The notes: generated by a model from the sequence alone, not told the origin. DNA of 64,000 nucleotides from an uncultured Solirubrobacteraceae bacterium (GCA_963771085.1 CAVYSB010000002.1:448917-512916); one strand, 5' to 3'; positions 3,605 to 34,937 are shown, counted from the first letter of the stretch. Numbers and translations are program-made.

Positions 3605-4876
3605 TGTGTGGTGCCACCACATAGGCGACATATGTGTCAGGACATGGGAGACACCAACGTGAGGGAGTCTTCCTGTGGCGATCGCGAGGTATCTGGTCGA
3701 GGCGCATGTGTTGGAGGGCCGTCCGGTTGGCGAGCTGGCAGCAGCTCACGGGGTTCATCGCAGCTGGATCTACAAGCTGCTGGCCCGCTACCGCGCTGGG
3801 GGCTATGAGGCGTTAGAGGCGCGCTCCAGACGGCCGCGATCGTGCAGGCACGAGACACCGCCAGAGGTCGTTGAGGCGATCGTTGGGTTGCGCAGCGAGC
3901 TACGGGAGCAGGGCCATGACGCCGGCGCTGAGACGATCGCCTACCACCTCGCCCAGCAAAGCAAAGACGTTCCCTCCCTCTCGACGATCTGGCGCATCCT
4001 CAGACGCGAGGGCCTCGTCGTTGCACAACCGCAGAAGCGGCCCCGCTGCAGCCTGATCCGCTTCCAAGCGGAGCTGCCGAATGAGATGTGGCAGGCCGAC
4101 ATCACCCACTGGGAGCTTTCCGGCGGCGAGCACGCAGAGATCCTCAACATGATCGATGACCACTCGCGCCTGTTCCTGGCCTCCCGAGCGTTCCAGACGA
4201 TCAAAGCCAGGGATGTGGTGGATGTCTTCCACGGCGCAGCCGAGCTCCACGGGCTGCCCGCCTGCTTGCTCTCCGACAACGGCGCCGTGTTCAGCGCCAC
4301 ACCGCGCAAGGGCAAAGTGCTCCTGCAGGCAGAGCTCGAGCGCCTCGGGATCGCCTCGAAGAACTCACGGCCCTACCACCCGCAGACCTGCGGGAAGGTC
4401 GAGCGCCTGCACCAGACACTGAAGCGCTACCTGGATGCCCAGAAGCCCGCCACGACGCTCACAGAGCTCCAAGGCCAGCTCGATCGCTTCGTGCACTACT
4501 ACAACAACGTGAGGCCGCACCGGGCTCTTGACCGACGGACGCCTCTCCAGGCCTACAGCGCCCGCCTGAAGGCAAGGCCCGCGGCCGTGAAACCAGACAC
4601 GCACTTCAGGGTCCGCAACGACACGGTCGACGCCCACGGCAAGGTCACCCTGCGCCACATGAGCCGCCTGCACCACATCGGACTGGGACGAGCCCACAAG
4701 GGGCGACAGGTCAAGCTCCTGATCGCCGATCAGAGCATCCGCGTGATCACCCTCGACGGCGAACTGATCCGCGAGCTCACGCTCGATCCAAGCCGCGACT
4801 ACCAGCCGCTCGGACGGCACTGACCTGTCTACCATGTCCCGCGACATCAGTCTCCGATGTCCCGACACATCACACA
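3605..4876 (+). mobile_element. IS481-family insertion sequence (about 1.27 kb)
   Basis: A single DDE transposase ORF is bracketed by imperfect terminal inverted repeats of about 50 bp. Both begin TGTGTG and share the GGACATGG(G/T)AGACA block. The element is flanked by a 13-bp direct repeat. Confidence 0.85.
3675..4823 (+). CDS. IS481-family transposase (HTH + rve/DDE core)
   Basis: N-terminal HTH (ELAAAHGVHRSWIYKLLARYR). DDE core recognisable as MWQADITHW...DDHSR, LLSDNGAVF and PYHPQTCGKVERLHQTLK. Confidence 0.9.
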   Translation: MAIARYLVEAHVLEGRPVGELAAAHGVHRSWIYKLLARYRAGGYEALEARSRRPRSCRHETPPEVVEAIVGLRSELREQGHDAGAETIAYHLAQQSKDVPSLSTIWRILRREGLVVAQPQKRPRCSLIRFQAELPNEMWQADITHWELSGGEHAEILNMIDDHSRLFLASRAFQTIKARDVVDVFHGAAELHGLPACLLSDNGAVFSATPRKGKVLLQAELERLGIASKNSRPYHPQTCGKVERLHQTLKRYLDAQKPATTLTELQGQLDRFVHYYNNVRPHRALDRRTPLQAYSARLKARPAAVKPDTHFRVRNDTVDAHGKVTLRHMSRLHHIGLGRAHKGRQVKLLIADQSIRVITLDGELIRELTLDPSRDYQPLGRH

Positions 4877-4889
4877 AAGCGGATGAAGG
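4877..4889. repeat. right copy of the 13-bp direct repeat (lies within the tRNA-Gly 3' end)
   Basis: AAGCGGATGAAGG, identical to 3592-3604. Covers the acceptor 3' strand and part of the T-arm of tRNA-Gly. Confidence 0.8.
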
Positions 4890-4951
4890 GATTCGAACCC
4901 TCGACCTTCGCCATGGCAAGGCGACGCTCTAGCCAGCTGAGCTACATCCGC
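4878..4951 (-). tRNA. tRNA-Gly (anticodon GCC)
   Basis: The reverse complement GCGGATGTAGCTCAGCTGGCTAGAGCGTCGCCTTGCCATGGCGAAGGTCGAGGGTTCGAATCCCTTCATCCGCT folds as a cloverleaf. The anticodon loop is TTGCCAT. CCA is not encoded. Confidence 0.9.
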
Positions 4952-5010
4952 GCGCTGGTGGATTCTAGCCCTCGCAGCCGCACCGCGTCCAGGCGCTCGG
5001 CACGGGCCGC

Positions 5011-6225
5011 TCAGGCGGGCCGGTGCGCGCGCACCTGATAGACGGCGGTGAGCGCCTGTTCGAAGCCGCGCCCGGCGGCGCGCAGGTAGAGGCGCCAGAT
5101 CCGCGTGCGCTCCTTGCCGGCGAGCGCCTCGGCCGCCTCGATGTGGTCGTCCAGGCGCTGGGCCCAGTGGCGCAGCGTGATCGCATAGTCCTCCCTGAAC
5201 CCCTCCACATGGTCGGTGTGCAAGCCCGCGCGCTCGACCGCGAGCTGCACGCGGGAGAGCGAAAGCGGCTCGCCGTCGGGGAACACGTAGCGCGTTGAGA
5301 AGAGATCCGCAAGCGGGTCGTCGTCTGGGTCGAGGGCAGCGATCGCGTGGTTGAGCAACCGCCCGCCCGGGCGCAGCAGCGTGTACAGCGACGCGGCGTA
5401 GTGATCGATCTGGCTCTCGCCCACGTGCTCGGACATGCCGATGCTCGCGATCGCGTCGAAGGATGCCTGCGGCAGCTGGCGGTAGTCGGCCACGCGGATG
5501 TCCACCCGCTCCTCCAGCCCCGCCGCGCGCACGCGCTCGCGGGCAAGCTCGGCCTGCGGCGGGGACAGGGTGATCCCCGTCACCTCCACGCCGTACTCGC
5601 GCGCGGCGTGGATCGCGAAGCTGCCCCAGCCGCAGCCCACGTCGAGCACGCGCATGCCGGGCTCCAGCGCGAGCTTGCCCGCCACCAGCTCGAGTTTGGC
5701 GCGCTGGGCCTCCTCGAGAGTCTGCGCGCCCCGCGAGAAGATCGCGCAGCTGTAGGTCATCGACTCGTCGAGGAACAGCGCGAAGAAGTCGTTGCCGACG
5801 TCGTAGTGGTAGCGCACGGCCGCCGCGTCGCGCTCCACGCTGTGGCGCTCCCCGCCCAGGATCAGCTCCAGTTCGGGCCTGCGCGGAATCCCCGCGGGCG
5901 CCGCCGCGGCGGCGATCGCCAGGCCCAGGCGGACACGGTCAAAGCCGCCCAGCTCGGGTGGCTCGAACTCGTCCACCACAGCGAACGCGCCATCGAGGTC
6001 GTCCACCGCGAGCGAGCCCTCAACGTAGGCTCGGCCCAGCCCCAGGGTTCCGGGCGATGAGATGAAATGCGCAAGCGCGGAGGGCCGGCGCACGAAGAAC
6101 GTGGGTGCCTCCTCGACGGTCGCCTGCACCGCCCCGCCGTCCCAGAAGCGCACGTGAAAGGGCCGCGACGGCAGCACTCGCTCCAGCTCGTGGCTCAGGG
6201 GCCTGCTCGCACGGATCAGCGCCAT
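5011..6225 (-). CDS. cfa: cyclopropane-fatty-acyl-phospholipid synthase family SAM-dependent methyltransferase
   Basis: YDVGNDFFALFLDESMTYSCAIF and the SAM motif VLDVGCGWGSFAIHAA are hallmarks of CFA / mycolic-acid methyltransferases. Confidence 0.9.
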   Translation of the reverse strand: MALIRASRPLSHELERVLPSRPFHVRFWDGGAVQATVEEAPTFFVRRPSALAHFISSPGTLGLGRAYVEGSLAVDDLDGAFAVVDEFEPPELGGFDRVRLGLAIAAAAAPAGIPRRPELELILGGERHSVERDAAAVRYHYDVGNDFFALFLDESMTYSCAIFSRGAQTLEEAQRAKLELVAGKLALEPGMRVLDVGCGWGSFAIHAAREYGVEVTGITLSPPQAELARERVRAAGLEERVDIRVADYRQLPQASFDAIASIGMSEHVGESQIDHYAASLYTLLRPGGRLLNHAIAALDPDDDPLADLFSTRYVFPDGEPLSLSRVQLAVERAGLHTDHVEGFREDYAITLRHWAQRLDDHIEAAEALAGKERTRIWRLYLRAAGRGFEQALTAVYQVRAHRPA

Positions 6226-14510: not shown

Positions 14511-16115
14511 GTGCGGGGGAACAGGCGGACGAGAGCGAGGAGGATCGTGGAGCGCAAATGGTGGACGCTGATCGCGGTGTCGGTCGCGATCTTCATGCTG
14601 CTGCTCGACATCACCGTCGTGAACGTCGCGCTGCCGGCCATCCAGCGCTCCCTGCACTCGAGCTTCCAGGACCTGCAGTGGGTCGTCAACGCCTACTCGC
14701 TGACGCTCGCCGCCTTCCTGCTGACGGCCGGCTCGCTGTCCGATCTGATCGGGCGCCGGCGCGTGTTCGTCATCGGGCTGATCGTCTTCACGCTCTCATC
14801 CGCTGTGTGCGGGCTGTCCTCCAGCCCGTTGATGCTCAACCTCGCCCGTGCCGTGCAGGGGACGGGCGGCGCGATGATGTTCGCAACCTCGCTGGCGCTG
14901 ATCGCACAGGCCTTCCACGGCAAGGAGCGCGGCGTGGCCTTCGGCGTCTTCGGCGGCGTGGTGGGCGCCGCGGTGGCCGTCGGGCCGGTGGTCGGCGGGG
15001 TCATCACCTCGGGGATCGGCTGGGAGTGGATCTTCTTCGTCAACGTGCCCATCGGCATCGTCGCGGTGGCACTCACGCTCACCCAGGTCGGCGAGTCGCG
15101 CGACCCGCAGGCCACGCGTGTGGACTGGGCGGGCCTGTTCACGTTCTCCGGGTCGCTGTTCCTGTTCGTCTTCGCGCTGATCCAGGGCAACGAATACGGC
15201 TGGGGCTCGACGCGCATCGTCAGTTTCCTGGCCGGCGCGGCGGTGCTGATCGTGCTGTTCGTCGTGGTGGAGCTGCGCCAGGCGCGCCCGATGCTCGACC
15301 TGAGCCTGTTCAGGCGCCCCGCCTTCGCCGGCGCGAGCATCGTGGCGTTCACGATCTCGGCATCGATGTTCGCGATGTTCCTCTACCTCACGCTCTACAT
15401 CCAGGACGTGCTCGGCTACGACGCGCTCCAGGCGGGCCTGCGCTTCCTGCCGATCACGCTGCTGTCCTTCGCGGTGGCACCCTTCGCCGGGCGCCTGAGC
15501 GTGCGTATGCCCGTGCGCCTGCTGCTCGGCACGGGCCTGCTGCTCGTCAGCGCCGGGCTGCTGTCGATGAGCGCGCTCGACGCGTCCTCGCAGTGGACGG
15601 TGCTGATCCCCGGGTTCCTGCTCGCCGGCGCGGGCATCGGCATGATCAACCCGCCGCTGGCCTCGACCGCGATCGGCGTTGTGCACTACTCGCGCAGCGG
15701 CATGGCCTCGGGCATCAACAACACCTTCCGCCAGGTCGGTATCGCGACCGGCATCGCCGGCCTCGGTGCCATCTTCCAGCACGACGTCACGCGCGAAACC
15801 ACGGCTGCGCTGGCCGCGAGCGGACCGGGACGCGAGGTGATCGCCTCCGTACACGGCGCGCTCCCCGGCGCACTGGTCTCCGGCGAAGTGCGGGGCCTCG
15901 CCGCGCAGCTCTCGCTCTCCGCGCGCCTGGCGCTCGAGCACTCCTACCGCATCGGCTTCACCTCCGCGCTGAGCAGCATCCTCGTGATCGCGGCGGTCAT
16001 CGCCCTGGTCGGCGCCGTGTGCGCCTTCGTGCTCGTGCGCGGCCGCGACTTCGTCAGCTCGGCCGATCCCGCTGAGCCGCACGAGGGTGCCGAGGCGGAG
16101 GCGGTGGCGGCTTGA
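14511..16115 (+). CDS. MFS transporter, DHA2 family (paralog of 11435..13009)
   Basis: WWTLIAVSVAIFMLLLDITVVNVALPAIQRSL...GSLSDLIGRRR fits a 14-TMS drug:H+ antiporter. The start (GTG 14511 or a downstream GTG) is uncertain. Confidence 0.85.
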   Translation: MRGNRRTRARRIVERKWWTLIAVSVAIFMLLLDITVVNVALPAIQRSLHSSFQDLQWVVNAYSLTLAAFLLTAGSLSDLIGRRRVFVIGLIVFTLSSAVCGLSSSPLMLNLARAVQGTGGAMMFATSLALIAQAFHGKERGVAFGVFGGVVGAAVAVGPVVGGVITSGIGWEWIFFVNVPIGIVAVALTLTQVGESRDPQATRVDWAGLFTFSGSLFLFVFALIQGNEYGWGSTRIVSFLAGAAVLIVLFVVVELRQARPMLDLSLFRRPAFAGASIVAFTISASMFAMFLYLTLYIQDVLGYDALQAGLRFLPITLLSFAVAPFAGRLSVRMPVRLLLGTGLLLVSAGLLSMSALDASSQWTVLIPGFLLAGAGIGMINPPLASTAIGVVHYSRSGMASGINNTFRQVGIATGIAGLGAIFQHDVTRETTAALAASGPGREVIASVHGALPGALVSGEVRGLAAQLSLSARLALEHSYRIGFTSALSSILVIAAVIALVGAVCAFVLVRGRDFVSSADPAEPHEGAEAEAVAA

Positions 16116-24451: not shown

Positions 24452-24667
24452 TCAGTGCCCGTGAATGAGGCTGCCGCGCACGTCGCGCCACTCTTGCACC
24501 CTGTGCTCGCTCGCAACGATGATGTCCATCGGGACCAGCACGTCCGCCAGTACTCTCCGCAGCTGCACCGACTCCAAAGCCGGATTCTCGACCTCCGGCT
24601 CGATCACCAAGCATTCCACATCGCCGTCCCGCGTCAGCTCCCCACGCGCAGCCGAGCGCAGGCTCAC
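24452..24667 (-). pseudogene. MNT-type nucleotidyltransferase (antitoxin) remnant, N-terminally truncated
   Basis: SAARGELTRDGDVECLVI...VPMDIIVASEHRVQEWRDVRGSLIHG matches the GS.aRGe...SD(I/V)DLLV ... vP(V/I)D(I/L)IV...e......gSL pattern. About 25-30 N-terminal residues are missing, exactly at the att repeat. Confidence 0.45.
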
Positions 24668-24687
24668 TCCGGGACAGGGACTCGAAC
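24666..24687. repeat. distal att copy: 22-bp direct repeat ACTCCGGGACAGGGACTCGAAC (displaced tRNA-Gln 3' end)
   Basis: Perfect identity with 34865-34886. The flanking bases differ on both sides. Confidence 0.9.
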
Positions 24688-24828
24688 TGTGGGCAGCGGA
24701 TCGCGCAATCCCTGTGTCAGAGCCAAATATGGCTCCAGTGCAGGCGAAACGCCCGATCGCTCATCCGGCCGAGTCCGGCTGAATCCGCCCGAATCAGTAC
24801 ACGACTGGCCCAAGATTGGCCCGAGCTT

Positions 24829-26046
24829 TCACCCCACGAGCCTGAGCGCCGGACGCTTCCCGTCGCCTGCCAGATAGGCGTTCGCGGCAGCCGCCGCCTC
24901 GTCCAGGCCGCCGGGCATCAGGTGGCCGTAGGTGTCGAACGTCATGGCAATCGTCGCGTGGCCCATGATGACGCTCAGCGCCTTCGCGTTCACGCCCGCG
25001 GCGATCAACAGCGACGCGCAGGTGTGCCGCGCCTCATGCAGCGTGATCGGCTGCTGTGCGTCGTCTCGCACCTTGGCGAGGATCGTCCTTGGACCATCCG
25101 CTTCCTCGTTCGGGACTTCCTGCCAGCCCCACGCCACGAGCGCGTTCCGCCGGATGGTTTCCGGGTTGAAGGGCTCGGCGGCGGTCCTGCCGAACACCAG
25201 CGCGTCGCTAGAGCCTTCGGTGCGGAGCTTGTGCGCGGCCAGCTCCCCCGCGAGCGGCTCGAGGATCGGCACCCGCCGGTTGCCCGCAGCACTCTTCACC
25301 GGCTGCTCGCGCTCGATCGCATCCCAGCCCCGCGAGACGTGGATCACGCGGGCCGCCAGGTCGACGTCGCCCCAGCGCAGCGCACGCAGCTCCCCGCGCC
25401 GCAAGCCGGCGTAGAACGCGCACGCCCACAGCGCCCGCTCGCCCTCGGCGATAGCAGCGATGAGCGCCGCCGCCTCGGTAGGGTCGGCGATCCGCTCCCG
25501 CCGACCGTCGGGCCGGCGTAGCTCAAGCCGCTCGGTCGGGTCGGCCGTGACCTCTTCGTCGCGGATCGCACGCCGGTAGATGACGCGCAGCGGGTCAAGC
25601 GTGTTCTGCACGGTGCTCGCGCTCAGCCCTTCGCTCGTCAGCCGGTTGGCGAGCTTCTGCACGTCGCGGCGCTCGACATCCGACAGGCGCATGCCGCCCA
25701 GCGTCGGCAGTAGACGTTTGTTGAGCCCGACGCTGTAGCCCCGGAGCGTCGCGGGCTTGTAGCGGGTGCCCGATGCCGTCGGGATAGAGCCGTCGCGGGC
25801 GCCGGCCATGAACGCCTCGGCGGCCTGCCGGACGGTCATGGACGTGGGCGCACGGAGCTTGCCCTTGTTCGCCGCGGCGAGCTTATCCGCCCGCCAGACC
25901 TTCGCCGCCGCCTGCGTCGGGAACGTCTTGCGCAGCTTGCAGTCGTCGCGCTTCGAGTAGACCTCGGCACGCCACGGACAGTCGCAGCGACCCTTGCCGT
26001 TGCATCCGTTGCCGTGACGTTGACGCACTCCGGTGGCCATCAGCAA
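24829..26046 (-). CDS. int: tyrosine-type site-specific integrase
   Basis: Catalytic signature recognisable: AGLRRGELRAL (Arg I), HEARHTCAS (H-x-x-R) and GHATIAMTFDTYGHL (His..Tyr). An N-terminal SAM-like domain is present. Confidence 0.92.
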   Translation of the reverse strand: MLMATGVRQRHGNGCNGKGRCDCPWRAEVYSKRDDCKLRKTFPTQAAAKVWRADKLAAANKGKLRAPTSMTVRQAAEAFMAGARDGSIPTASGTRYKPATLRGYSVGLNKRLLPTLGGMRLSDVERRDVQKLANRLTSEGLSASTVQNTLDPLRVIYRRAIRDEEVTADPTERLELRRPDGRRERIADPTEAAALIAAIAEGERALWACAFYAGLRRGELRALRWGDVDLAARVIHVSRGWDAIEREQPVKSAAGNRRVPILEPLAGELAAHKLRTEGSSDALVFGRTAAEPFNPETIRRNALVAWGWQEVPNEEADGPRTILAKVRDDAQQPITLHEARHTCASLLIAAGVNAKALSVIMGHATIAMTFDTYGHLMPGGLDEAAAAANAYLAGDGKRPALRLVG

Positions 26047-26161
26047 TCACCTCCAGACGATGCCGCGGTGTACGGTGCCGATTGCATGGGAGCTGAACCT
26101 CCTGTGTCATGCCCCCGGCCGCGACCACGGTGCGGGGGCGCTTTGCAGATAGCTCGACACG

Positions 26162-26401
26162 CTACTCCCCCACACCGACGCTTTCGGCGTGCCGGTCAAG
26201 CCAAGCCTGCAGCTCGCTGACCGGGATCAGCTTGCGGCGCCCAACACGCACGAGGCGCACGTCGGGCTCGATATGCGCGCGCCAAGTGTCCCACGACACG
26301 CCCAGCGCTTCGCATGCCTGCTCGACGCTGAGGGCGAGGGCGGCCGCGCTCTGCTTCCGGTCCGCAAGGGTGACTGCCGTACGTGGGGATATTGGGGCCA
26401 T
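26162..26401 (-). CDS. xis: excisionase-like helix-turn-helix DNA-binding protein
   Basis: LSVEQACEALGVSWDTWRAHI...VRVGRRKLIPVSELQAWLD fits the HTH_17/Xis family pattern. It sits immediately upstream of int. Start set at MAPISP. Confidence 0.75.
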   Translation of the reverse strand: MAPISPRTAVTLADRKQSAAALALSVEQACEALGVSWDTWRAHIEPDVRLVRVGRRKLIPVSELQAWLDRHAESVGVGE

Positions 26402-26675
26402 CGCGGTTACAGACCCCAACCTGCACGGACCGGCCAAGAGATTGCGTGAAGAACCGGGCGGGCGCGAATTGGCGCGCACATCTCAAACGCCCTCGAAGGG
26501 CAAAGCCGCGCGGCAGGCCACAAGCCCCTGACACCTGCGCTTCGCTCGGTCAGTCGCCCGCGCCACCAACGAGTCATCCCACCACGAAGCGCTCGACGCG
26601 ACCCCGACGGTCGACGCGTCTGGCTGCGCCACCACGCGCGCCTCGGCACGACAAAAAGCCCGTACAGACAACATG

Positions 26676-26708
26676 CACGGCTGTGCCGTGGCACAGCGAG
26701 CGCTGTGC
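26676..26708 (+). promoter_or_regulatory. candidate oriT-type paired hairpins upstream of the relaxase
   Basis: CACGGC-tgt-GCCGTG at 26676-26690 is directly followed by GCACAGCG-ag-CGCTGTGC at 26691-26708, about 45 nt before the relaxase start. Confidence 0.3.
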
Positions 26709-26753
26709 GAATTGCTTGGCCGGTTCGGCGCGTTGAGGGTCATCACCCATGTG

Positions 26754-29405
26754 ATGACTGCGGCGAGCATAGGTGCGTCTCGGGGCGGTGGGTACGCGCG
26801 CTACCTGGAGAGCAAGACGGTGGAGCCCGAGCGCGGGGACTACTACCTGACACCCGATGGGGAGATGGCGCAGGCCCCCGGCCGCTGGCTGGCCGATGCC
26901 GAGACCCTGGAGAGGCTCGGGGTTCAGGCCGGCGGGCCGGTGGATGGCGCGGACTTCATCGCGCTGATGGAGGGCCATCACCCAGGCACCGGCCGGTGGC
27001 TTCGTCCGGAGGGCGCCGGCGGCGGCCGGGGCGGCGGGATCGACGTGACGTTCAGCGCACCGAAGTCCGTCTCGACCGTATGGGCGCTCGGCGACCCGTG
27101 GCAGCGCGAGCAGATCGAGCAGGCCCATGCCAGGGCGGTCGAGCAGACCATCCACCATCTGCGAGAGCAGGTGCCCGTCGTGCGGCGTCGCTACAGCGGC
27201 CAGGTCGTGGAAGAGCACGCCAAGGACGTGATCGCCACCGAGTACCGACACACCACCGCCCGCGGAGTCCAGGGCGCCCAGGCCCCAGACCCGCAGCTGC
27301 ACAGTCATGTCGTGATCACCGGCGCTGTCCGCGAGGACGACCGGATTGTGGCGGTCGCGTCGCGGCCGATCTTCCGCTCAGCACGGGAGATGGGCGCGTT
27401 TTACCGCACCGCGCTCGCCGACGAGCTCGTGCGGGAGGGATACACGATCGAGCAGGGCACCGGCAAGGATGGCCGGTACTTCGAGATCGCCGGTGTCCCC
27501 CACGAGCTTTGCCAGGCGTTCTCCGGTCGCTCCCGTGAGGTCGCACGCGCCGCGGAGCGCTTCCGTGCCCGCTACGGCCGGGCACCCGAACGCGGCGAGC
27601 TTCGTAACCTCGCGCTCGAGAACCGCCGGTCCAAGGAGCTGACCACACGCTCTGACCTACAACGAGTGTGGACACAGACCGCTCGCGATCACGGATTCGG
27701 CCCGGATGAGGCGGTGCGACTGATCGGTGCATCCGAGCGGCCAATGGCCGAGCGCGCGATCGAGGATCGGGTCGAGGCGAAGCTGACCGAGCAGCACGCC
27801 GTCTTCCAGGAGCGCGACCTGCGCGCGATCGTGCTGGAGCAGGCCGCCGGGGAGATGGCGCCGGATCAGGCGCTTGCCGTCGCCCGGGAGATGGTCCGCG
27901 ACCGGCGCGTGCTCACGCTGGAGGGCGGACGCATGACCACCCTCGCGGTTCGCGCGCAGGAGCAGGCGATCGAGCGCCGCGCCGCACAGCTCGCCCAACC
28001 CGCAGGCCGAGACGTCGGCCACGTCGCACGCGATAACGCTGCGCGTGAGGCAGCCGAGCGCATCGGCGGACCACTCAGCCCCGAGCAACACCACGCGCTC
28101 GCAGTCCTCACTGGTCCTGAGCGCGCCGCGGTCCTCGTCGGGCCGGCGGGGACCGGCAAGGGTGTGGTGATCGACGCCGCCGCCCGTGCGGAGCAGTACG
28201 CCGGGCGGGAGACGATCGGGGTCGCGGTGTCCGGGTCCACCGCAGAGCGGCTCGGCGCGGACAGCCCTGCGCTCGCCGGGCAGACACTCACTCTGGACTC
28301 GCTGGTAGCCCGCGCGAACACGGGGGCCATCCACGTCGGCAGGGACACAACAGTAATCCTGGACGAGGCGGGGATGGTCGACCACAAGCGCCTCGACGCG
28401 CTGACCGGGCTGGTGGAGCGCTCCGGGGTGAAGCTGATCGCTGTCGGCGACGGCAAGCAGCTCCCCTCGATCGGCCCCGGCGGCATGTTCGACCGGCTCA
28501 CCGGCCACGCACCCAGCGCCGAGCTCGCAGACATCCACCGGACCAAGGACCCCGCCGACCAGCGCACATGGCAAGCACTACGCGCAGGAGAACCCGAGCG
28601 CGCGATGGCGCATTACGTCTCACGCGGCGAGCTTCACCTCTCCGATACCCGCGACCAGGCGGCAGAGCAAGCCGTACAAACATGGGCCACCCTCACGGAG
28701 GGGCGCGATATCCGCGAGGTCGCGTTGATCGCCGACGCCTCCAACCAGGAGATCGACCGGCTCAACGCCCGCGCCCAACACCTACGCGCACAGCGCGGCG
28801 AACTCGGACACCACGAGACCCCGCTACCCGGCGTCCACTACGGCCTACGCGAAGGCGACCTCATCGCCTTCACCGCGCAGCATCGCCCGCGGGGGCAGCC
28901 GCGGGTCGAGAACGGCACCCGTGGACAGGTCAGCGCCATCCACGAGCGAGGCGTGACCGTCACCCTCGACGGATCGCAGCGCAGAGTCCAGCTCGCCGGC
29001 GAGGACGTGGAGTCGCTGAGGCTCGCGTACGCGCAGCATGTCTACCGCCAACAGGGCGCGACCGTCGAGCGCTCCGTTGTCCTGACCGGCGGCTGGCAGA
29101 CCAGCAAGGAGACCGCCTACGTCGAGGCAACCCGCGCCCGACACGGCACCGACTGGTACATCGCCCGCGAGGACCTCGGCGAGGAAGGACAGGACTCCGA
29201 GCGCATCCAACGCCTCGCAGCCAGCATGGGACGAAGTCGCGCGCAAACCCCATCACTCGCGCACCCCGAGCTACCCGACCCGGAATACGGCCGCGGCTAC
29301 ACGCGCCCGATCGCGCCCAGCCGCCGCAGCCGGATACCGGGGATCGCCCGCGCCATCAACCGCATCGCCCAACCCGGTCGAACACCGGAACGTCTAGTTC
29401 GCTGA
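26754..29405 (+). CDS. MOBF-type conjugative relaxase (TrwC/TraA-like) fused to a RecD-like helicase
   Basis: Relaxase motifs: YARYLES...GDYYL, DVTFSAPKSVS and YRHTTARG...DPQLHSHVVI (His triad). Helicase motifs: VGPAGTGKG, VILDEAGMV and LIAVGDGKQLPSIGPGG. Confidence 0.9.
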   Translation: MTAASIGASRGGGYARYLESKTVEPERGDYYLTPDGEMAQAPGRWLADAETLERLGVQAGGPVDGADFIALMEGHHPGTGRWLRPEGAGGGRGGGIDVTFSAPKSVSTVWALGDPWQREQIEQAHARAVEQTIHHLREQVPVVRRRYSGQVVEEHAKDVIATEYRHTTARGVQGAQAPDPQLHSHVVITGAVREDDRIVAVASRPIFRSAREMGAFYRTALADELVREGYTIEQGTGKDGRYFEIAGVPHELCQAFSGRSREVARAAERFRARYGRAPERGELRNLALENRRSKELTTRSDLQRVWTQTARDHGFGPDEAVRLIGASERPMAERAIEDRVEAKLTEQHAVFQERDLRAIVLEQAAGEMAPDQALAVAREMVRDRRVLTLEGGRMTTLAVRAQEQAIERRAAQLAQPAGRDVGHVARDNAAREAAERIGGPLSPEQHHALAVLTGPERAAVLVGPAGTGKGVVIDAAARAEQYAGRETIGVAVSGSTAERLGADSPALAGQTLTLDSLVARANTGAIHVGRDTTVILDEAGMVDHKRLDALTGLVERSGVKLIAVGDGKQLPSIGPGGMFDRLTGHAPSAELADIHRTKDPADQRTWQALRAGEPERAMAHYVSRGELHLSDTRDQAAEQAVQTWATLTEGRDIREVALIADASNQEIDRLNARAQHLRAQRGELGHHETPLPGVHYGLREGDLIAFTAQHRPRGQPRVENGTRGQVSAIHERGVTVTLDGSQRRVQLAGEDVESLRLAYAQHVYRQQGATVERSVVLTGGWQTSKETAYVEATRARHGTDWYIAREDLGEEGQDSERIQRLAASMGRSRAQTPSLAHPELPDPEYGRGYTRPIAPSRRSRIPGIARAINRIAQPGRTPERLVR

Positions 29406-30867
29406 GCGGAGATGCCTCACAAGGTCTTTGGCGAGCTCGCGCTGCATCCTCAGTCCCCTGCGCAGCCTCGGCCCACTCTCTGAGCTGATCAGCCCATGGC
29501 ACCGGAACGCCGACGGCCTCGCTGAAAACCGCCAGCCCACCAAGGAACAGCCTTTCGAAGTGCTCAAGCGCGTCGCGCGCGCCCAGTTCCAGGGCGGCGA
29601 AGACGAGCTGGGCGAAGGTCCAGTAGGCGGTATGAAGCACGTGGAATGAGCTTGGACCCATCGGCTCTTCCGCCATGGCAAGCGGACCCGCGGTCATGCG
29701 TCTGAGCGCTGCGTATTGCTGCTCGAGGATGGGCTGCTCGCCGCGCAGCCGCGGGTGGAACTCCTCGGCGCCGGCGAGACGCTTGACGAGTACTTCGACG
29801 GTGAGCGGATCGCCGTTACGGTCAATGCTCCACCAGAGCTGTTCGGCATATGGGCCAAATTGCTCGCGCAACTCCTGCTCGCGGCCGGCGAGGTCTGAGA
29901 TGTCGTAGGCCGATGCGCTCGCGCCAGGGGCATTTGCGAAGTGAAGGCGCAACGCGTTTCCATGCGCCTTGTGCTGCTCAATCAGCCACTCGGGGTTGTC
30001 CTTGTACAGCACGAGCCAGTGGGCGACCAGCATATCCTCGAACAGGGATTCGGTGAGTGACGCGGCCTGCGCGGTGCGCCCCATCTGTGCCAGGGGAATG
30101 ATCGTCTCGTAGGTGGCGCGGGCGCGGATGAGCGTGGCGACGACGAGCAGTTCGAGGGGCGTCGAAGGCTCCCACGTGCCGTCATCAATGAACTTCGTGA
30201 GGAAGGCGCACACATCAGCGAGCATGTCGAGCATGCCAGGAGCGAGCTGCTCGGCTCCGTCGTCCTGCTGGGACTCGCCGGGCTCGTAGCGTTCGTTCCA
30301 CAGCGCCCCGGGCTCGATATCCGCCGTGGAATGGATCGCCCCCATGTAGGACATGAGCTCGGAGACGTGCACCGGCAGGATGTGGAGCGGCTCGCCGACC
30401 TCGAACCAGCGAAGCGCTTCGCAGCGCCCTGTGTTGCCCGTGCTCGCGATGCCGCGGTGATGGACGATGTCGTTACGCATGCGGTTGATGTCAGCCATTG
30501 CCGCGTCCTTCAGCTCGTTCTTCTCGATTCCGAGCGCCTTTGCGATCAGTGCGCGGTAATGGTCATTCCACTTGGAGGCAACCATGACGATCCACTGCTG
30601 CCCGAGCGCTCGGACGACCGGCCCCTCGGGAGCGAGCCGCTCGGCGAGTGTCCTGATCGGCCAGCGCTGATATGCGAGACCCTCTTGGCTATTGGGGTTC
30701 CCGTGCCCGACGAACAGCGTTGAGTCGGCGCTTGGCGCCTTGAGCGTCCTAGCGAACTCCGCCATCTTGATAATGCCGGTGAGCGCCATCGCGTGGATGC
30801 CGGCGATGTTGTTGAGCTCGTCAATGAACTCGTTCGTGAGCCTGACGGACTGCTCGTTCTCGTCCAT
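29356..30867 (-). CDS. hypothetical protein with a HEPN-type Rx4H motif (N-terminal) and a long helical C-terminal domain
   Basis: 503 aa with clean coding statistics. DINRMRNDIVHHRG (RNDIVH encoded at 30460-30477) fits the HEPN RN-xxx-H signature. The C-terminal half (LIRARATYETIIPLAQMG..FEDMLVAHWLVLYKDNPEWL) is helical and reminiscent of DUF5677/Abi-like domains (from memory). Confidence 0.7.
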   Translation of the reverse strand: MDENEQSVRLTNEFIDELNNIAGIHAMALTGIIKMAEFARTLKAPSADSTLFVGHGNPNSQEGLAYQRWPIRTLAERLAPEGPVVRALGQQWIVMVASKWNDHYRALIAKALGIEKNELKDAAMADINRMRNDIVHHRGIASTGNTGRCEALRWFEVGEPLHILPVHVSELMSYMGAIHSTADIEPGALWNERYEPGESQQDDGAEQLAPGMLDMLADVCAFLTKFIDDGTWEPSTPLELLVVATLIRARATYETIIPLAQMGRTAQAASLTESLFEDMLVAHWLVLYKDNPEWLIEQHKAHGNALRLHFANAPGASASAYDISDLAGREQELREQFGPYAEQLWWSIDRNGDPLTVEVLVKRLAGAEEFHPRLRGEQPILEQQYAALRRMTAGPLAMAEEPMGPSSFHVLHTAYWTFAQLVFAALELGARDALEHFERLFLGGLAVFSEAVGVPVPWADQLREWAEAAQGTEDAARARQRPCEASPLSELDVPVFDRVGRCG

Positions 30868-30968
30868 GTCCCGAGGCTAGCGCGCGCGCCGCGGCGTGAG
30901 AGAGCAGACCTGCATCGGACTGACCTTCGAGTTGCCACCTACGTGACGGTTTGGCCTTCCCGTAAGGT

Positions 30969-32087
30969 TTGGTGGTGGACGCAATCTATCTCCGGCACGG
31001 CAACGAGTTCGTTGCGATGCACGAGCGGCCATATGAGGCTGAGGCCGTGCTACAGGTGCTGTTGGCTGATCACCCGGAGATTCTTGCCGGCGGCGAACCG
31101 GGAGACGAGGGCCACGGCTGGGTGCTGGTCAGGCGTGAGCCGGGGGTGCCGGACGCTGAGGGTGCAGCCGACCGGTGGGCGCTGGATCATCTGTTCTTGG
31201 ATGCAGCGGGCGTGCCAACGCTGGTGGAGGTCAAGCGCAGCTCCGACACTCGTGCCAGGCGTGAGGTGGTCGCGCAGATGCTCGACTACGCGGCGAACGC
31301 GACCGCTTTCTGGAGGGTCGATTCGCTGCAGGCCTGGTTTGAGGCTGAGTGCGAACGTCATGGGACCGACAGCGCCGTCGCGCTCGAGACGGCTTTTGGC
31401 ACGATCGACCCGAGCGGCTATTGGGAGAGGGTGCAAACAAATCTCGCTGCGGATCGGATACGGCTCGTGTTCGTCGCCGACGAGATCGCCCCCGAGCTTC
31501 GCAGCATCGTGGAGTTCCTCAACCGGCAGATGAGCGAGACCGAGGTCCTTGCGATCGAGGTCAAGCAGTACGTAGACACCGAGGGAGAGCGCCAGACGAT
31601 CGTGCCCCGTGTGGTGGGCCAAACCGAGGCAGCGCGCGCGGCAAAGGGCACGCGCTCACGGGCCGGCGGTCCCGCGTTCGACCTGGCGACCGCGCCGGCC
31701 GATGTCCGCGAGCTGATCGAAAAGATGGACCGTCTAGCCGGCGAACTCGGCCTCACGGTCAGATCTGCACGCACGGGACGCAACTACCAGCCGCAAATAT
31801 TGGAGTCGGGCGTCAAATACACAAGTGGTATCGGGGTCTACGCCAGCGGGCGTGGCGCGGAGTTCAACCTCTCGGTCTTCAGGGAACTTGGGGCGAACGA
31901 GGTCGCCGATGGACTCCTGCAGCGCCTCCGTGAGGTCACTGACGTGAAGGTCGATGCGCCCTCCTGGCCAGCCGTCCCGTGCCAAACGCTAGTCGGGGAC
32001 TGGGATCGCGTCCGCTCGCAGCTCATCTTGCCGTATTTTCACGCTCGCCGCGAGCTCTCAGAAGAAGATCGGCAAGCTGGAAGGTGA
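30969..32087 (+). CDS. hypothetical protein with an N-terminal PD-(D/E)xK (NucS/DUF91-like) nuclease-type core
   Basis: 372 aa. VLQVLLADHPEIL...WALDHLFLDAAGVPTLVEVKRSSD..REVVAQMLDYA (D..D..EVK encoded at 31185-31235) is followed by IRLVFVADEIAPELRSIVEFLN. The C-terminal ~150 aa are unassigned. GTG start is uncertain. Confidence 0.65.
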   Translation: MVVDAIYLRHGNEFVAMHERPYEAEAVLQVLLADHPEILAGGEPGDEGHGWVLVRREPGVPDAEGAADRWALDHLFLDAAGVPTLVEVKRSSDTRARREVVAQMLDYAANATAFWRVDSLQAWFEAECERHGTDSAVALETAFGTIDPSGYWERVQTNLAADRIRLVFVADEIAPELRSIVEFLNRQMSETEVLAIEVKQYVDTEGERQTIVPRVVGQTEAARAAKGTRSRAGGPAFDLATAPADVRELIEKMDRLAGELGLTVRSARTGRNYQPQILESGVKYTSGIGVYASGRGAEFNLSVFRELGANEVADGLLQRLREVTDVKVDAPSWPAVPCQTLVGDWDRVRSQLILPYFHARRELSEEDRQAGR

Positions 32088-32163
32088 CGGATCGCGAGGA
32101 CCGAGCAACCCACCAGCGCGACCGCCGTGCGGTAGAGCCGGGCACCGGCTGGTCGGGCTTTGA

Positions 32164-33096
32164 TCATTCTGGCACTTCAATCGTGTAGCCCCCGGGTGTC
32201 CGACACACATGGACTATGCCGCCTTCAATGTGCAGCACAGCAGGCGTGTCGCCAAGCGCTCGACAGTTGCCTTCCCACTGTTTGAGACGTTCGCGTTCTT
32301 CGCGTTCCAGCTGGCGTTGCCCTTCTCGGAACTGGCGTTCGTTGTCTTCGCGCTCTACCTGAACCGCGTGCCGCAGGAAGCGGCAGCGAACTGTTGTAAC
32401 CGGCCGGAATGTGCCCCGCCTGATGAGCGTCTTGCCGACGTTGCTACGAGCCGATACGGTGAAGTGATAGGTGCTGCCGGGGCGGCTGCAGGTCCACGGG
32501 ATCCGCAACGTCCATGCCGGTTCTTCTCGCTGTAGCTCAAGGTGTTCCGTACGATGTCCGTATCGCACAAGCTGGATCGTGAGGTAGGCGAATGACACAG
32601 CCGTAATGCGGAGCGTCGTGTAGCCCGGACGGCGGAAGGCCCCATCGCACGCTTGTCTGCACGTTGCCGCGTGCGGAACAGCCGTCACGGACAGATTTCT
32701 TATCGGTTCGCTGAGGGCCTTTGTCCTGGCTTCGCCTTCTTCTGCCCGGAGACGGGCTTCATCCGCAGCGCCGATTTCTTTCCGGGCTGTTTCGACAGCA
32801 GGCGGCGGACCGCAGAGACTCTCGTCCAGTCCTTCGGATTCGAAGGAGGTTTTGGTCTCGTCTGCGACTTCGATCCATTCTCGGCAGGTGAGTCCTGCGC
32901 AAGACTTTCCCCATTCGGACGGGAACGACGCCTTCTCGGACGCTTCAACCGCTCCTCGACACGCCGTCTGGTCTGAGGCTGCTCCCGCAGGCAGGGCTGC
33001 GAGCGCGGCAAGAGCCGCGATGGCCGCCATGACCAACTTGTTCGGGATCCATCGACGGCGCTCGCGTCGGACGCGGTTCGGTGTCATTGGCGTCAT
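32164..33096 (-). CDS. secreted Cys-rich hypothetical protein
   Basis: Signal peptide (LVMAAIAALAALAALPAGAAS), a charged coiled segment and about 10 Cys. This is the lowest-GC part of the island. No family recognised. Confidence 0.55.
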   Translation of the reverse strand: MTPMTPNRVRRERRRWIPNKLVMAAIAALAALAALPAGAASDQTACRGAVEASEKASFPSEWGKSCAGLTCREWIEVADETKTSFESEGLDESLCGPPPAVETARKEIGAADEARLRAEEGEARTKALSEPIRNLSVTAVPHAATCRQACDGAFRRPGYTTLRITAVSFAYLTIQLVRYGHRTEHLELQREEPAWTLRIPWTCSRPGSTYHFTVSARSNVGKTLIRRGTFRPVTTVRCRFLRHAVQVEREDNERQFREGQRQLEREERERLKQWEGNCRALGDTPAVLHIEGGIVHVCRTPGGYTIEVPE

Positions 33097-33182
33097 TCCC
33101 TCCCGTACTGGTTGCCGGACGGTGGAGGTCGCCCTCCAGGCCAGTCTCGATCTTATCCTTCACTCATCGCCTTTGGCCATGA

Positions 33183-33401
33183 GGTCCGCGAGACGCGAGC
33201 CTTGCCGCCGGCATGGCGACGCCCGACGAGACACAGCGCAAGGTCATGAATCTCTTTCAGGGTGCCTACGCCGTGTTGCGCACTCCGGCCGGGCACCGCG
33301 AGGTTGACTACGACGATGTCACCGAGACATCAGAGGCAGTCGCAACTGCAAGCCTGCTCATGCGTATCCTTGATCGAGTCGAGCAGCGCCTTTCTCGCTG
33401 A
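33183..33401 (+). pseudogene. C-terminal fragment of a TIGR02391/Ymh-type (HEPN-clan) protein
   Basis: NLFQGAYAVLRTPAGHREVDYDD..EAVATASLLMRILDRV matches the family C-terminus (f.Ga...iRNp.aH......eA......asllLr.ld). The frame is closed by a TGA at 33180-33182, so only about 70 aa remain. Confidence 0.5.
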
Positions 33402-33897
33402 CGATCACACGCCGGCTCGCCTCGGTCGCGTCTGCCAGCAGACCGGTGTGGGATCTACAGGCTTCGCACCGTAGGCGGGACTTGGACCAGAATTAGGTCG
33501 GGGGTGCCTCGGCCTAACGAAAGCCCACTGGAGGTCGAGCGGCCTCGCGCGCGGCGTCGATCTCCTTTGCCGTGATGTTCTGATCGAGTGCGATCGCTTC
33601 GATCAGACCCCCGGCGTAACCTCCGAGCTGACGCAGCAGGACGGCTGCTGTCCTCGCCACCGGCTGGTTGTGAAGGGCGATCTGAGGAATATGGACTACT
33701 CGCAGGTTAACTCCGACGATTAGGGAAATCTTGGAGAAATCCTGAGCGCCCTCGCCTTCGTCGTTTCAGGCGAGCGAAAGACGTCGTAGGCGCCCTCGCC
33801 GCCATCGAACTCGCTCAGATCACTCACGCCGAGTCCAACCATTGCCGTGCCTTCGCCCCATCAGAGGGAAATCGAGCCGGGTGGACGGGCACCCGGG

Positions 33898-34230
33898 CTA
33901 TGCCGCGTGAACCACGACCGGCGGAGCGCCGTTCGCCTCGGCCGCCGGGATCAGGTGGTACTGCACGACGAAGCCAAGGCTCTCCGCGTAGCGATCGACG
34001 GTCGAGATCTTCGCATCGGCCGCTGTGCTCTCCAGGCGCGCGACGAAGGACTGCGAGGTCTCCATCGCCGCGGCGATCACGGTCTGCGAGCGCTTCTGCT
34101 CCTCACGCTGCCCGGCCAGAGCACGCAGCAACTCACGCCGCCGGCGAGCGGCATCCAGCAGCCGCGGAAACTCGGGGTTTCGCGCGGCGCGCTTGTCGAT
34201 CATCTTGTCTAGGAAGTCGCGCTCGGGCAT
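33898..34230 (-). CDS. XRE-family HTH antitoxin (HigA-like)
   Basis: RSQTVIAAAMETSQSFVARLESTAADAKISTVDRYAESLGF is an XRE HTH. It lies immediately downstream of the RelE/HigB-like gene. Confidence 0.75.
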   Translation of the reverse strand: MPERDFLDKMIDKRAARNPEFPRLLDAARRRRELLRALAGQREEQKRSQTVIAAAMETSQSFVARLESTAADAKISTVDRYAESLGFVVQYHLIPAAEANGAPPVVVHAA

Positions 34231-34304
34231 GGGCCTTGCCTACTCTCTGAATGGGCATCGATACCTACAGCGGTATCTCTTTTGAGAGATAAGAGTAGCA
34301 CCTC

Positions 34305-34746
34305 TCACTGATGCAGCGGACGCCTGCCGCGCGCAACGCGCTTCTGATCCCCACGCCGCCGCCAATCCGCAAGACGTCTCTTCGCCAGCTCGATAGTGGC
34401 CGGGGGCGTCTTCTGCGTCTTCTTGTTGAACCCGTCCAAGCGCCAGCAGGATCTGTCCGCGGCTGCCTTCCTCCGCAAGCAGGATGCGGTAGATGACCCG
34501 ATCGCCGTCCACTCTGACCTCCCAGATGTCGCCGTCAAGATGACGGGCGGCTCGCAGGCCCCGATCGCGAACCTCCTCCATGCCCGCAAGCACGGCCGCC
34601 GCATCGGAATCGGAGAGCTTGTCGATGAACCCTTCGACCGGACTACGACCCGATGGGGTCTTGTAGTCGCGCCAGCGCCGCCGAATCGGAGGCGGCCCAC
34701 CGGCAGCAGAGTCGGTCTTCTCCCTGGATCGCTTCGCTGGAGCCAT
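34305..34746 (-). pseudogene. frameshifted RelE/ParE-superfamily toxin (HigB / phage Gp49-like)
   Basis: The N-terminal part (PSGRSPVEGFIDKL...IWEVRVDGDRVIYRILLAEEGSRGQILLAL) is in one frame. The conserved tail GFNKKTQKTPPATIELAKRRLADW is in another frame (ORF 34305..34922). The frame switch lies near 34435-34440. Confidence 0.75.
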
Positions 34747-34864
34747 CGAACGAGCTTATGCAGCGCCTCGGACCGAGCACTCTTGGTCAACAGGACTGGC
34801 CCAAATCCTGGCCCGAGCAACCCCTTGAAACGCAAAACGCCCCGTAAACACGGGGCGCAAGCGA

Positions 34865-34886
34865 ACTCCGGGACAGGGACTCGAAC
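34865..34886. repeat. proximal att copy (inside tRNA-Gln)
   Basis: ACTCCGGGACAGGGACTCGAAC, identical to 24666-24687. Confidence 0.9.
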
Positions 34887-34937
34887 CCCAAACTCGTGCT
34901 CCAGAGGCACGCGTGTTGCCAATTACACCATCCCGGA
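34866..34937 (-). tRNA. tRNA-Gln (anticodon CTG)
   Basis: The reverse complement TCCGGGATGGTGTAATTGGCAACACGCGTGCCTCTGGAGCACGAGTTTGGGGTTCGAGTCCCTGTCCCGGAG folds as a cloverleaf with anticodon loop CTCTGGA. CCA is not encoded. Confidence 0.88.

Follow-up and report, generated by a model that had tools for sequence, protein, structure and literature searches.

Two separately circulating cargo genes, encoding a NucS-like PD-(D/E)xK protein and a candidate HEPN-like/DUF5677 fusion, lie back to back in an integrative mobilizable element of a Solirubrobacteraceae bacterium

The locus described in this work belongs to an uncultured Solirubrobacteraceae bacterium and was analysed within a stretch of 64,000 nucleotides, hereafter the window (GCA_963771085.1 CAVYSB010000002.1:448917-512916; all positions are counted from its first letter). 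It comprises two divergent genes that are carried as cargo by an integrative mobilizable element of 10.2 kb and that encode the products here called protein 1 and protein 2. An earlier note on this DNA had proposed that the two genes, which it could match to no named defence system, form an RNase-plus-DNase immunity or addiction module with a shared promoter region. The open reading frames (ORFs), their motifs and the spacer between them were found, by ORF calling and translation, exactly where that note had placed them; the pairing of the two genes is not conserved and they form no unit. The features of the locus are the following (aa, amino acids; AF2, AlphaFold2; pLDDT, predicted local distance difference test):

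29356..30867, minus strand: protein 1, 503 aa (ORF call)
30253..30867, minus strand: N-domain of protein 1, aa 1-205 (profile search, 936 clusters)
30328-30630, minus strand: conserved core of the N-domain, about aa 80-180, as delimited by the Mycolicibacterium arabiense homologue
30553..30570, minus strand: W100-N-D-H-Y-R105, family motif W-[ED]-x3-R
30460..30477, minus strand: R131-N-D-I-V-H136, Rx4H motif
29458..30240, minus strand: C-domain of protein 1, aa ~210-470, DUF5677-type, all-helical (Pfam, relatives, AF2)
29356..29460, minus strand: non-conserved C-terminal tail of protein 1, aa 470-503 (homology to L002 stops at 29461; lacking in relatives)
30868..30968, no strand assigned: spacer, 101 bp, with the cassette junction at about 30877-30888 (DNA comparison with L002, L007 and L008)
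30969..32087, plus strand: protein 2, 372 aa (ORF call)
31185..31289, plus strand: predicted catalytic core of protein 2, D73...E87-V-K89 then Q103-M-L-D-Y107 (invariant in 37 sequences)
31671..32084, plus strand: C-terminal domain of protein 2, aa ~235-372, subfamily-variable (AF2, pLDDT ~90)

For protein 2 the start is ambiguous within 1-3 codons and could be TTG at 30969 or GTG at 30972. Translation of 30460-30477 gives RNDIVH in protein 1, and that of 31185-31235 gives DHLFLDAAGVPTLVEVK in protein 2. Between 29 and 35 kb the G+C content (GC) is 0.62-0.67 versus about 0.70-0.72 in the flanks, and at third codon positions (GC3) it is 0.79 in the gene of protein 1 and 0.76 in that of protein 2, with 0.89-0.95 in the adjoining host genes; the description of both genes as lower-GC cargo of a mobile island agrees with this drop and with the attachment (att) repeats, integrase and relaxase of the element. 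Shuffling of the sequences produced R[NHD]xxxH in 11% of cases for protein 1 and D-x8-20-E-x-K in 29% for protein 2, and the bare motifs of both proteins are weak evidence if taken singly; they become meaningful because they are conserved family-wide. A scan of the region with sigma-70-type promoter and terminator consensus sequences found no sites. The two genes are real, and their products are probably RNase-like and DNase-like.

Partner genes were searched with tblastn and hidden Markov models (HMM), within 10 kb of the relatives of protein 2, and the comparison covered about 130 other loci from four families; in none of these loci did homologues of the two genes occur as neighbours. Apart from this element, the two genes occur together just once, in an identical contig of 2 kb (L001). 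A relative of protein 2 is absent from all five other loci with relatives of protein 1 (tblastn and HMM), and a gene for the N-domain or for DUF5677 was found within 10 kb in 0 of the 83 loci of protein 2 relatives. Likewise, 40 metagenome loci with stand-alone N-domain genes yielded neither a protein 2 nor a DUF5677 partner, the five stand-alone DUF5677 loci (three distinct; L090, L091 and L137-139) have no partner gene, and the two halves of protein 1 were not seen as adjoining genes in any locus of these two sets. Neighbour clustering, too, gave a conserved partner neither for the protein 2 family nor for the stand-alone N-domain genes. The relatives of protein 1 in L002/L003 (84% identity), L004, L005 and L006 have different neighbours (HTH_17 with PIN, KwaB-like, Fic and Abi_alpha), as do the orthologues of protein 2 in L007 (94%), L008 (90%) and Conexibacter L009 (62%), which stand near integrases, GmrSD_N and TrwC.

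At the DNA level, the match of the protein 1 cassette to L002 spans 29461-30888, and the match of the protein 2 cassette extends over 30877-32084 in L007 and over 30942-32101 in L008. Because DNA homology breaks at about 30877-30888, the two cargo cassettes abut in the spacer, and since the matches to L002 on one side and to L007 and L008 on the other end there, the spacer is the seam of two separately circulating cassettes, and not the shared promoter region suggested earlier. The 34-residue tail of protein 1 extends, in antisense, over the 3' end of the relaxase gene, the two genes converging with an overlap of 50 bp (29356-29405); as this tail is non-conserved and antisense to the relaxase end, a recombination seam, and with it a second cassette boundary, is placed there.

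Protein 2 belongs to a very large family. More than 6331 homologues were scored, and at least 589 species-level genomes across bacteria and archaea have a match, including Planctomycetota, Chloroflexota, cyanobacteria, proteobacteria and methanogens. The first ~226 residues keep 45-60% identity across phyla and archaea; the C-terminal ~140 residues are common to about 15 close relatives only, the others having a different domain. No variation was seen among 37 relatives at residues E25, D73, H74, D78, E87, K89, R90, R97, R98, Q103 and Y107. In the AF2 model (overall pLDDT 79.5) the core is formed by strands 74-77 and 83-89 and helix 96-114, E25 is located in helix 25-34, and D73, E87 and K89 lie on adjacent strands after a helix, as PD-(D/E)xK enzymes require; a helical insert of 45 residues (117-160) and a confident C-terminal alpha/beta domain complete the model. 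The best Foldseek matches were EndoMS/NucS (PDB 5gke and 2vld; probability 0.99, E ~5e-3, ~220 aligned columns), with weaker ones to Card1, SfsA, Shedu SduA and Nt.BspD6I, and the global TM-score to NucS/EndoMS is low (0.2-0.33). The conserved residues and the predicted restriction-endonuclease-like fold place protein 2 in the PD-(D/E)xK superfamily, and the NucS-like core that had been read from the sequence is upheld by the invariant residues and the Foldseek result.

The resemblance to NucS/EndoMS concerns the structural match and the D...ExK core followed by a Q/Y helix. Protein 2 differs from these enzymes in its helical insert, in its unrelated C-terminal domain, and in being a mobile-element gene of variable context rather than part of a conserved repair locus; with the NCBIfam NucS model (NF002876) it scores 14.2 bits, over aa 25-96 only, versus an equivalog cut-off of 252 for the full two-domain protein, and by this measure it is not NucS proper. 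No Pfam family matches protein 2, and nothing was recognized in its C-terminal domain by Pfam, by profile search of solved structures or by Foldseek. A sequence search of the solved structures with the profiles of protein 1, protein 2 and the N-domain also gave nothing.

Among the PADLOC models, PDC-S11 matches protein 2 (PDLC04916, E 7.4e-11; PDLC04915, E 6.9e-7) and also all 37 of its aligned relatives (best E 4.2e-16), in each case through the N-terminal PD-(D/E)xK domain, and the C-terminal half departs from the profile. The assertion that nothing named resembles the locus does not hold for this gene: on these matches, protein 2 is a further member of the known PDC-S11-related candidate superfamily, as a solitary gene. 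The PDCs are described as 145 untested candidates chosen for being embedded in BREX, DISARM or type I restriction-modification (RM) loci. Relatives of protein 2 adjoin RM and BREX genes, and clustering of the neighbours in the 83 loci gave, as recurrent ones, integrases (6), Schlafen/AlbA_2 (4), type I HsdM/S (4), HsdR (3), TrwC (3) and N6_N4 methylases (3). This neighbourhood of integrase, type I RM and BREX genes is consistent with the embedding of PDCs in defence loci. On the Sinorhizobium plasmid pSS05631d (L134, 5953-12609), a relative of protein 2 is located between repC and the BREX-1 cluster brxL-pglZ-pglX. In the alignment of the protein 2 family (A3), C-terminal domains of at least two unrelated-looking types stand beside the unusually well-conserved nuclease domain, and this combination of a conserved nuclease domain with a varied C-terminus suggests frequent horizontal transfer and domain swapping.

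Among 5.8e9 proteins, protein 1 has 17 relatives, of which some 7 approach its full length, and the alignment splits it into two halves, N and C. A profile search of 1.84 billion representatives with the N-domain (E<=1e-3; clusters at 50% identity) retrieved 936 clusters, of which 381 reach E<=1e-10; with few exceptions the proteins stand alone and are 180-210 aa long, and every member that bears a name is called 'hypothetical'. Conservation was assessed in 53 divergent relatives with a mean column identity of 33%. In the Rx4H motif, R131 is present in 53/53 and H136 in 51/53, D133 in 51/53, and position 132 is N in 36, H in 16 and D in 1. In the upstream motif, W100 and R105 are both present in 53/53, and position 101 is E in 37, D in 9 and N in 5 (E/D in 46/53); protein 1 itself departs from this consensus, with N101 and D102. 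HEPN domains are characterized by Rx4-6H with N, D or H right after the arginine and by a second conserved acidic residue upstream in helix 2, typically as Ex3[KR] (Anantharaman et al., 2013, PMC3710099). Judged by its alignment, the N-domain family carries both features, the Rx4-6H with N, D or H after R and the upstream acidic motif.

Several traits of the N-domain recall the single-protein HEPN Abi effectors (Abi2/AbiD/AbiF, AbiV, AbiJ, Ymh, DUF3644): an R-[NH]-x3-H in which R is followed by a polar residue, an acidic-x3-basic motif upstream of it, and solitary genes located on mobile elements near RM or defence genes. It differs from them in that it has no profile-level match to a curated HEPN family and a fold that is predicted only, in that its motifs are just 26-31 residues apart, and in that its predicted insert precedes, and does not follow, the helix with [ED]x3R. 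HEPN domains fold as a four-helix up-and-down bundle in which helix 3 ends with the motif; in the low-confidence AF2 model (pLDDT <50), helix 116-136 ends at H136 and is followed by a loop. Foldseek of the protein 1 model against PDB and BFVD returned helical noise only, alignment of the N-domain profile with a single DUF3644 sequence by hhalign was not significant, and no Ymh or DUF3644 relatives that could have served as HEPN reference profiles came out of a local search with jackhmmer. Profile and structure searches, then, gave a nuclease fold for protein 2 (Foldseek) and no HEPN match for protein 1; the HEPN assignment in the earlier note stands as far as the conserved Rx4H motif goes, but a curated HEPN profile or a structural match was not obtained.

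Stand-alone relatives of the N-domain on actinobacterial plasmids adjoin CHAT, DUF3644, methylase, NYN, recombinase and helicase genes. On the M. arabiense plasmid pJCM18538 (L132, 3973-6480), a 369-aa protein with the N-domain core and an RQDYVH motif is encoded divergently from a gene of DUF3644, an established HEPN family, and beside a CHAT-domain gene. Scanning 10 ORFs beside stand-alone N-domain genes with Pfam yielded no useful information, the choice of ORFs in this high-GC DNA being possibly spurious.

The C-half of protein 1 aligns to the Pfam profile DUF5677 (PF18928) at profile positions 3-107, with E 7.5e-4 and 20.1 bits, and protein 1 itself is below the gathering threshold of 27.1. 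Stand-alone relatives of this half, of ~290 aa, carry PF18928, as do relatives with 50-55% identity, and protein 1 can be assigned to DUF5677 by transitivity, because relatives such as P0009 have an unmarked match; the DUF5677-type C-terminal region that had been suspected is supported in this way. The AF2 model of the C-half has about 10 helices (pLDDT ~90) and no match in PDB or BFVD. Fusion of the N-domain to DUF5677 is also seen in some few clusters that have diverged (P0008, P0138 and P0143), and none of the literature found that mentions DUF5677 contains a HEPN-DUF5677 fusion. As its alignments indicate, protein 1 is a rare fusion of an uncurated HEPN-like N-domain with a DUF5677-type C-domain, a new variant. 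P0302 (L136, 2869-4150; 70% identity) was apparently the closest stand-alone N-domain relative; its DUF5677 part is present in another frame (E 7e-43), and it was rejected as a stand-alone protein, being a copy of the fusion with a frameshift. The C-domain has another R[NHD]xxxH, RDALEH (aa 431-436, 29575-29592), which was also rejected, as it is not conserved and probably due to chance.

The genes around relatives of protein 1 include PIN/HTH, Fic, Abi_alpha, KwaB-like, DUF4411/M78, recombinase, CHAT, DUF3644, methylase and helicase genes. In two diverged loci (L004, 5998-9539, and L137, 3358-5885, the latter also as L138 and L139), genes for a KwaA-like protein with multiple transmembrane segments and a KwaB-like protein are found directly upstream of a DUF5677-type gene, which in L004 is the full-length fusion P0008 and in L137 is DUF5677 alone. 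The KwaB-like proteins match PF16162 weakly and are 53-56% identical between the loci. The KwaA-like/KwaB-like/DUF5677 arrangement is possibly a three-gene variant resembling Kiwa. In L004, AhpC/Redoxin fragments lie on one side of the P0008 island (4672-5781) and a longer AhpC-type gene follows a serine recombinase (14736-15194), which suggests that the island was inserted into an AhpC-type gene.

The element that carries both genes has the following further features:

24656..34937, no strand assigned: integrative mobilizable element at tRNA-Gln, 10.2 kb (att repeats, tRNA, integrase, relaxase)
24656-24687 and 34855-34886: att direct repeats, 32 nt, 29/32 identical (repeat comparison)
24829-26046, minus strand: Tyr integrase
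26162-26479, minus strand: HTH_17, excisionase-like
26673-29405, plus strand: TrwC relaxase
32164-33096, minus strand: 310-aa ORF
33213-33401, plus strand: Ymh-family C-terminal fragment, 62 aa (Pfam Hypoth_Ymh, E 3.5e-7)
33898-34746, minus strand: Gp49/HigB-like gene (168 aa), then HTH_3/HTH_31 gene (110 aa)
34866-34937, minus strand: tRNA-Gln(ctg)

The right att copy overlaps the 3' end of the tRNA-Gln(ctg) gene, and no mating or transfer-apparatus genes were found within the 10.2 kb; given also its flanking repeats at a tRNA gene, its integrase and its relaxase, it is an integrative mobilizable element. Its flanks hold ordinary host genes (SnoaL, TIG, TrkA, permease and H+-pyrophosphatase), and the closest relaxases and protein 2 orthologues are from metagenome-assembled genomes of Solirubrobacterales, which points to a host that probably belongs to this order. 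Ymh is a HEPN family; the fragment in this element matches Hypoth_Ymh over the last 50 profile positions only, keeps R-x4-H (LRTPAGH) and looks like the remnant of a former cargo gene. The Gp49/HTH genes beside the attR end are a probable toxin-antitoxin pair. The 310-aa ORF, which is located where the GC of the island is lowest (0.62) and has one N-terminal hydrophobic segment (aa 16-41), had no match in a Pfam scan.

Our preferred reading, to which we assign a probability of about 0.62, is that each gene is an independent cargo cassette of its own in the 10.2-kb element and that recombination juxtaposed the two, each being a separate defence or conflict candidate and the two together no system. 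The comparisons show the domain boundaries, the conservation, the absence of a partnership and the placement in a mobile element and in neighbourhoods of defence type; the enzymatic activities of both proteins and their defence role are what we infer. Recombination would have set the two cassettes back to back, and each product would work by itself. Protein 2 is predicted to act alone as a Mg-dependent PD-(D/E)xK DNase, whose swappable C-terminal domain probably sets the specificity for a target or trigger, and most likely it would attack invading DNA or serve as an abortive effector. In the case of protein 1, we envisage a single-chain effector that probably dimerizes, as other HEPN enzymes do, and is predicted to cut RNA independently of metal by means of R131 and H136, with the fused DUF5677-type helical half possibly regulating, sensing or gating this activity. 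A more far-reaching proposal sees in the N-domain a so far undescribed, fairly large group of HEPN RNases, which counts at least 936 clusters at 50% identity and has no entry in Pfam, NCBIfam or PADLOC; its members would be solitary, antitoxin-less effectors of phage defence or abortive infection, and a small actinobacterial lineage would have captured DUF5677 as a built-in sensor. We consider this proposal tentative and more doubtful than probable.

Several observations weigh against parts of the preferred reading. The N-domain has no curated family in Pfam, NCBIfam or PADLOC, and its only matches to HEPN models are at the level of noise (HEPN_Swt1, 0.071; Cas13e, 0.084; RTasHEPN, 0.024). When it was aligned by hhalign to a six-sequence alignment of DUF3644, a HEPN family, both motifs were in register and the result was not significant (P 0.28). 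The AF2 model of aa 1-206 has a pLDDT <50 and is unreliable, so that the N-domain part of the model is unusable because of the shallow alignment. Membership of the N-domain in a HEPN family is on this sequence evidence unproven, and we put the chance that it functions as HEPN RNases do at roughly one half, because its motifs fit and profile-level support is absent. A preprint on Enterococcus (PMC12632615) places the one tested DUF5677 ORF outside the five ORFs that were reported as defensive. The PDC-S11 match of protein 2 covers profile positions 11-176 of 358, that is, the N-terminal half only, and PDC-S11 is itself described as an untested single-gene candidate obtained by guilt-by-embedding (Payne et al., 2024 preprint). 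Finally, protein 1 and protein 2 might interact in this one element even though their pairing is not conserved.

Three other explanations were compared with the preferred one. A true two-gene defence or addiction module, in which the divergent genes are regulated jointly from the 101-bp region, would agree with the close divergent arrangement, with the low GC and nuclease-type motifs of both genes, and with the short identical contig that holds them both. It is largely refuted, because the pairing was found in 0 of about 130 further loci from the families of protein 1, protein 2, the stand-alone N-domain and DUF5677. The neighbours also differ around the closest orthologues (84% identity for protein 1 and 90-94% for protein 2), DNA homology to the elements of these orthologues breaks inside the spacer, and we regard such a module as very improbable. 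It was also considered that protein 1 might be an addiction-type toxin, with its DUF5677 half as a fused antitoxin-like inhibitor, which stabilizes the element and senses no phage. Both halves of protein 1 do occur as separate proteins elsewhere, a HigB/HigA-like pair is present on the same island, and HEPN toxins are frequent in toxin-antitoxin systems as general background. Yet the stand-alone N-domain genes have no conserved antitoxin-like neighbour and are never beside DUF5677 genes, and a fused toxin-antitoxin offers no mechanism of differential stability for addiction; this explanation appears improbable, although less so than the module.

An explanation that is unlikely, if somewhat less so than these two, is that the genes serve the element or the host, protein 2 as a nuclease of DNA processing or repair or as a factor for stabilization or exclusion of TrwC elements, and protein 1 as a non-catalytic or regulatory helical protein in which Rx4H is no RNase site. 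Relatives of protein 2 lie at most 10 kb from closely related TrwC relaxases in L007, L008, L015, L026 and the present element, the repair enzyme NucS is the best structural match of protein 2, and the N-domain is recognized by no HEPN model. However, TrwC recurs in 3 of the 83 loci by clustering, DNA similarity adding a few more, all of them in close relatives; protein 2 is far from NucS proper in its score, and its other contexts are RM, BREX and integrase neighbourhoods. As for protein 1, the invariant R/H pair, the N or H after R and the upstream [ED]x3R are hard to square with a purely structural domain.

Since the two-gene system does not hold, the finding opens no new class of immunity, and its meaning lies in the separate proteins. 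The family of protein 2 is among the most widespread nuclease families that are still uncurated, and its conserved nuclease with a swapped C-terminus makes it a good target for studies of the PDC-S11 candidate and of recognition by variable domains. In the N-domain, a clean signature of two motifs marks a candidate for a new HEPN family, and the fusion of the N-domain to DUF5677 is the first hint of a working partner for this orphan domain. The presence of DUF5677 genes downstream of KwaA/KwaB-like pairs would tie the orphan domain to immunity.

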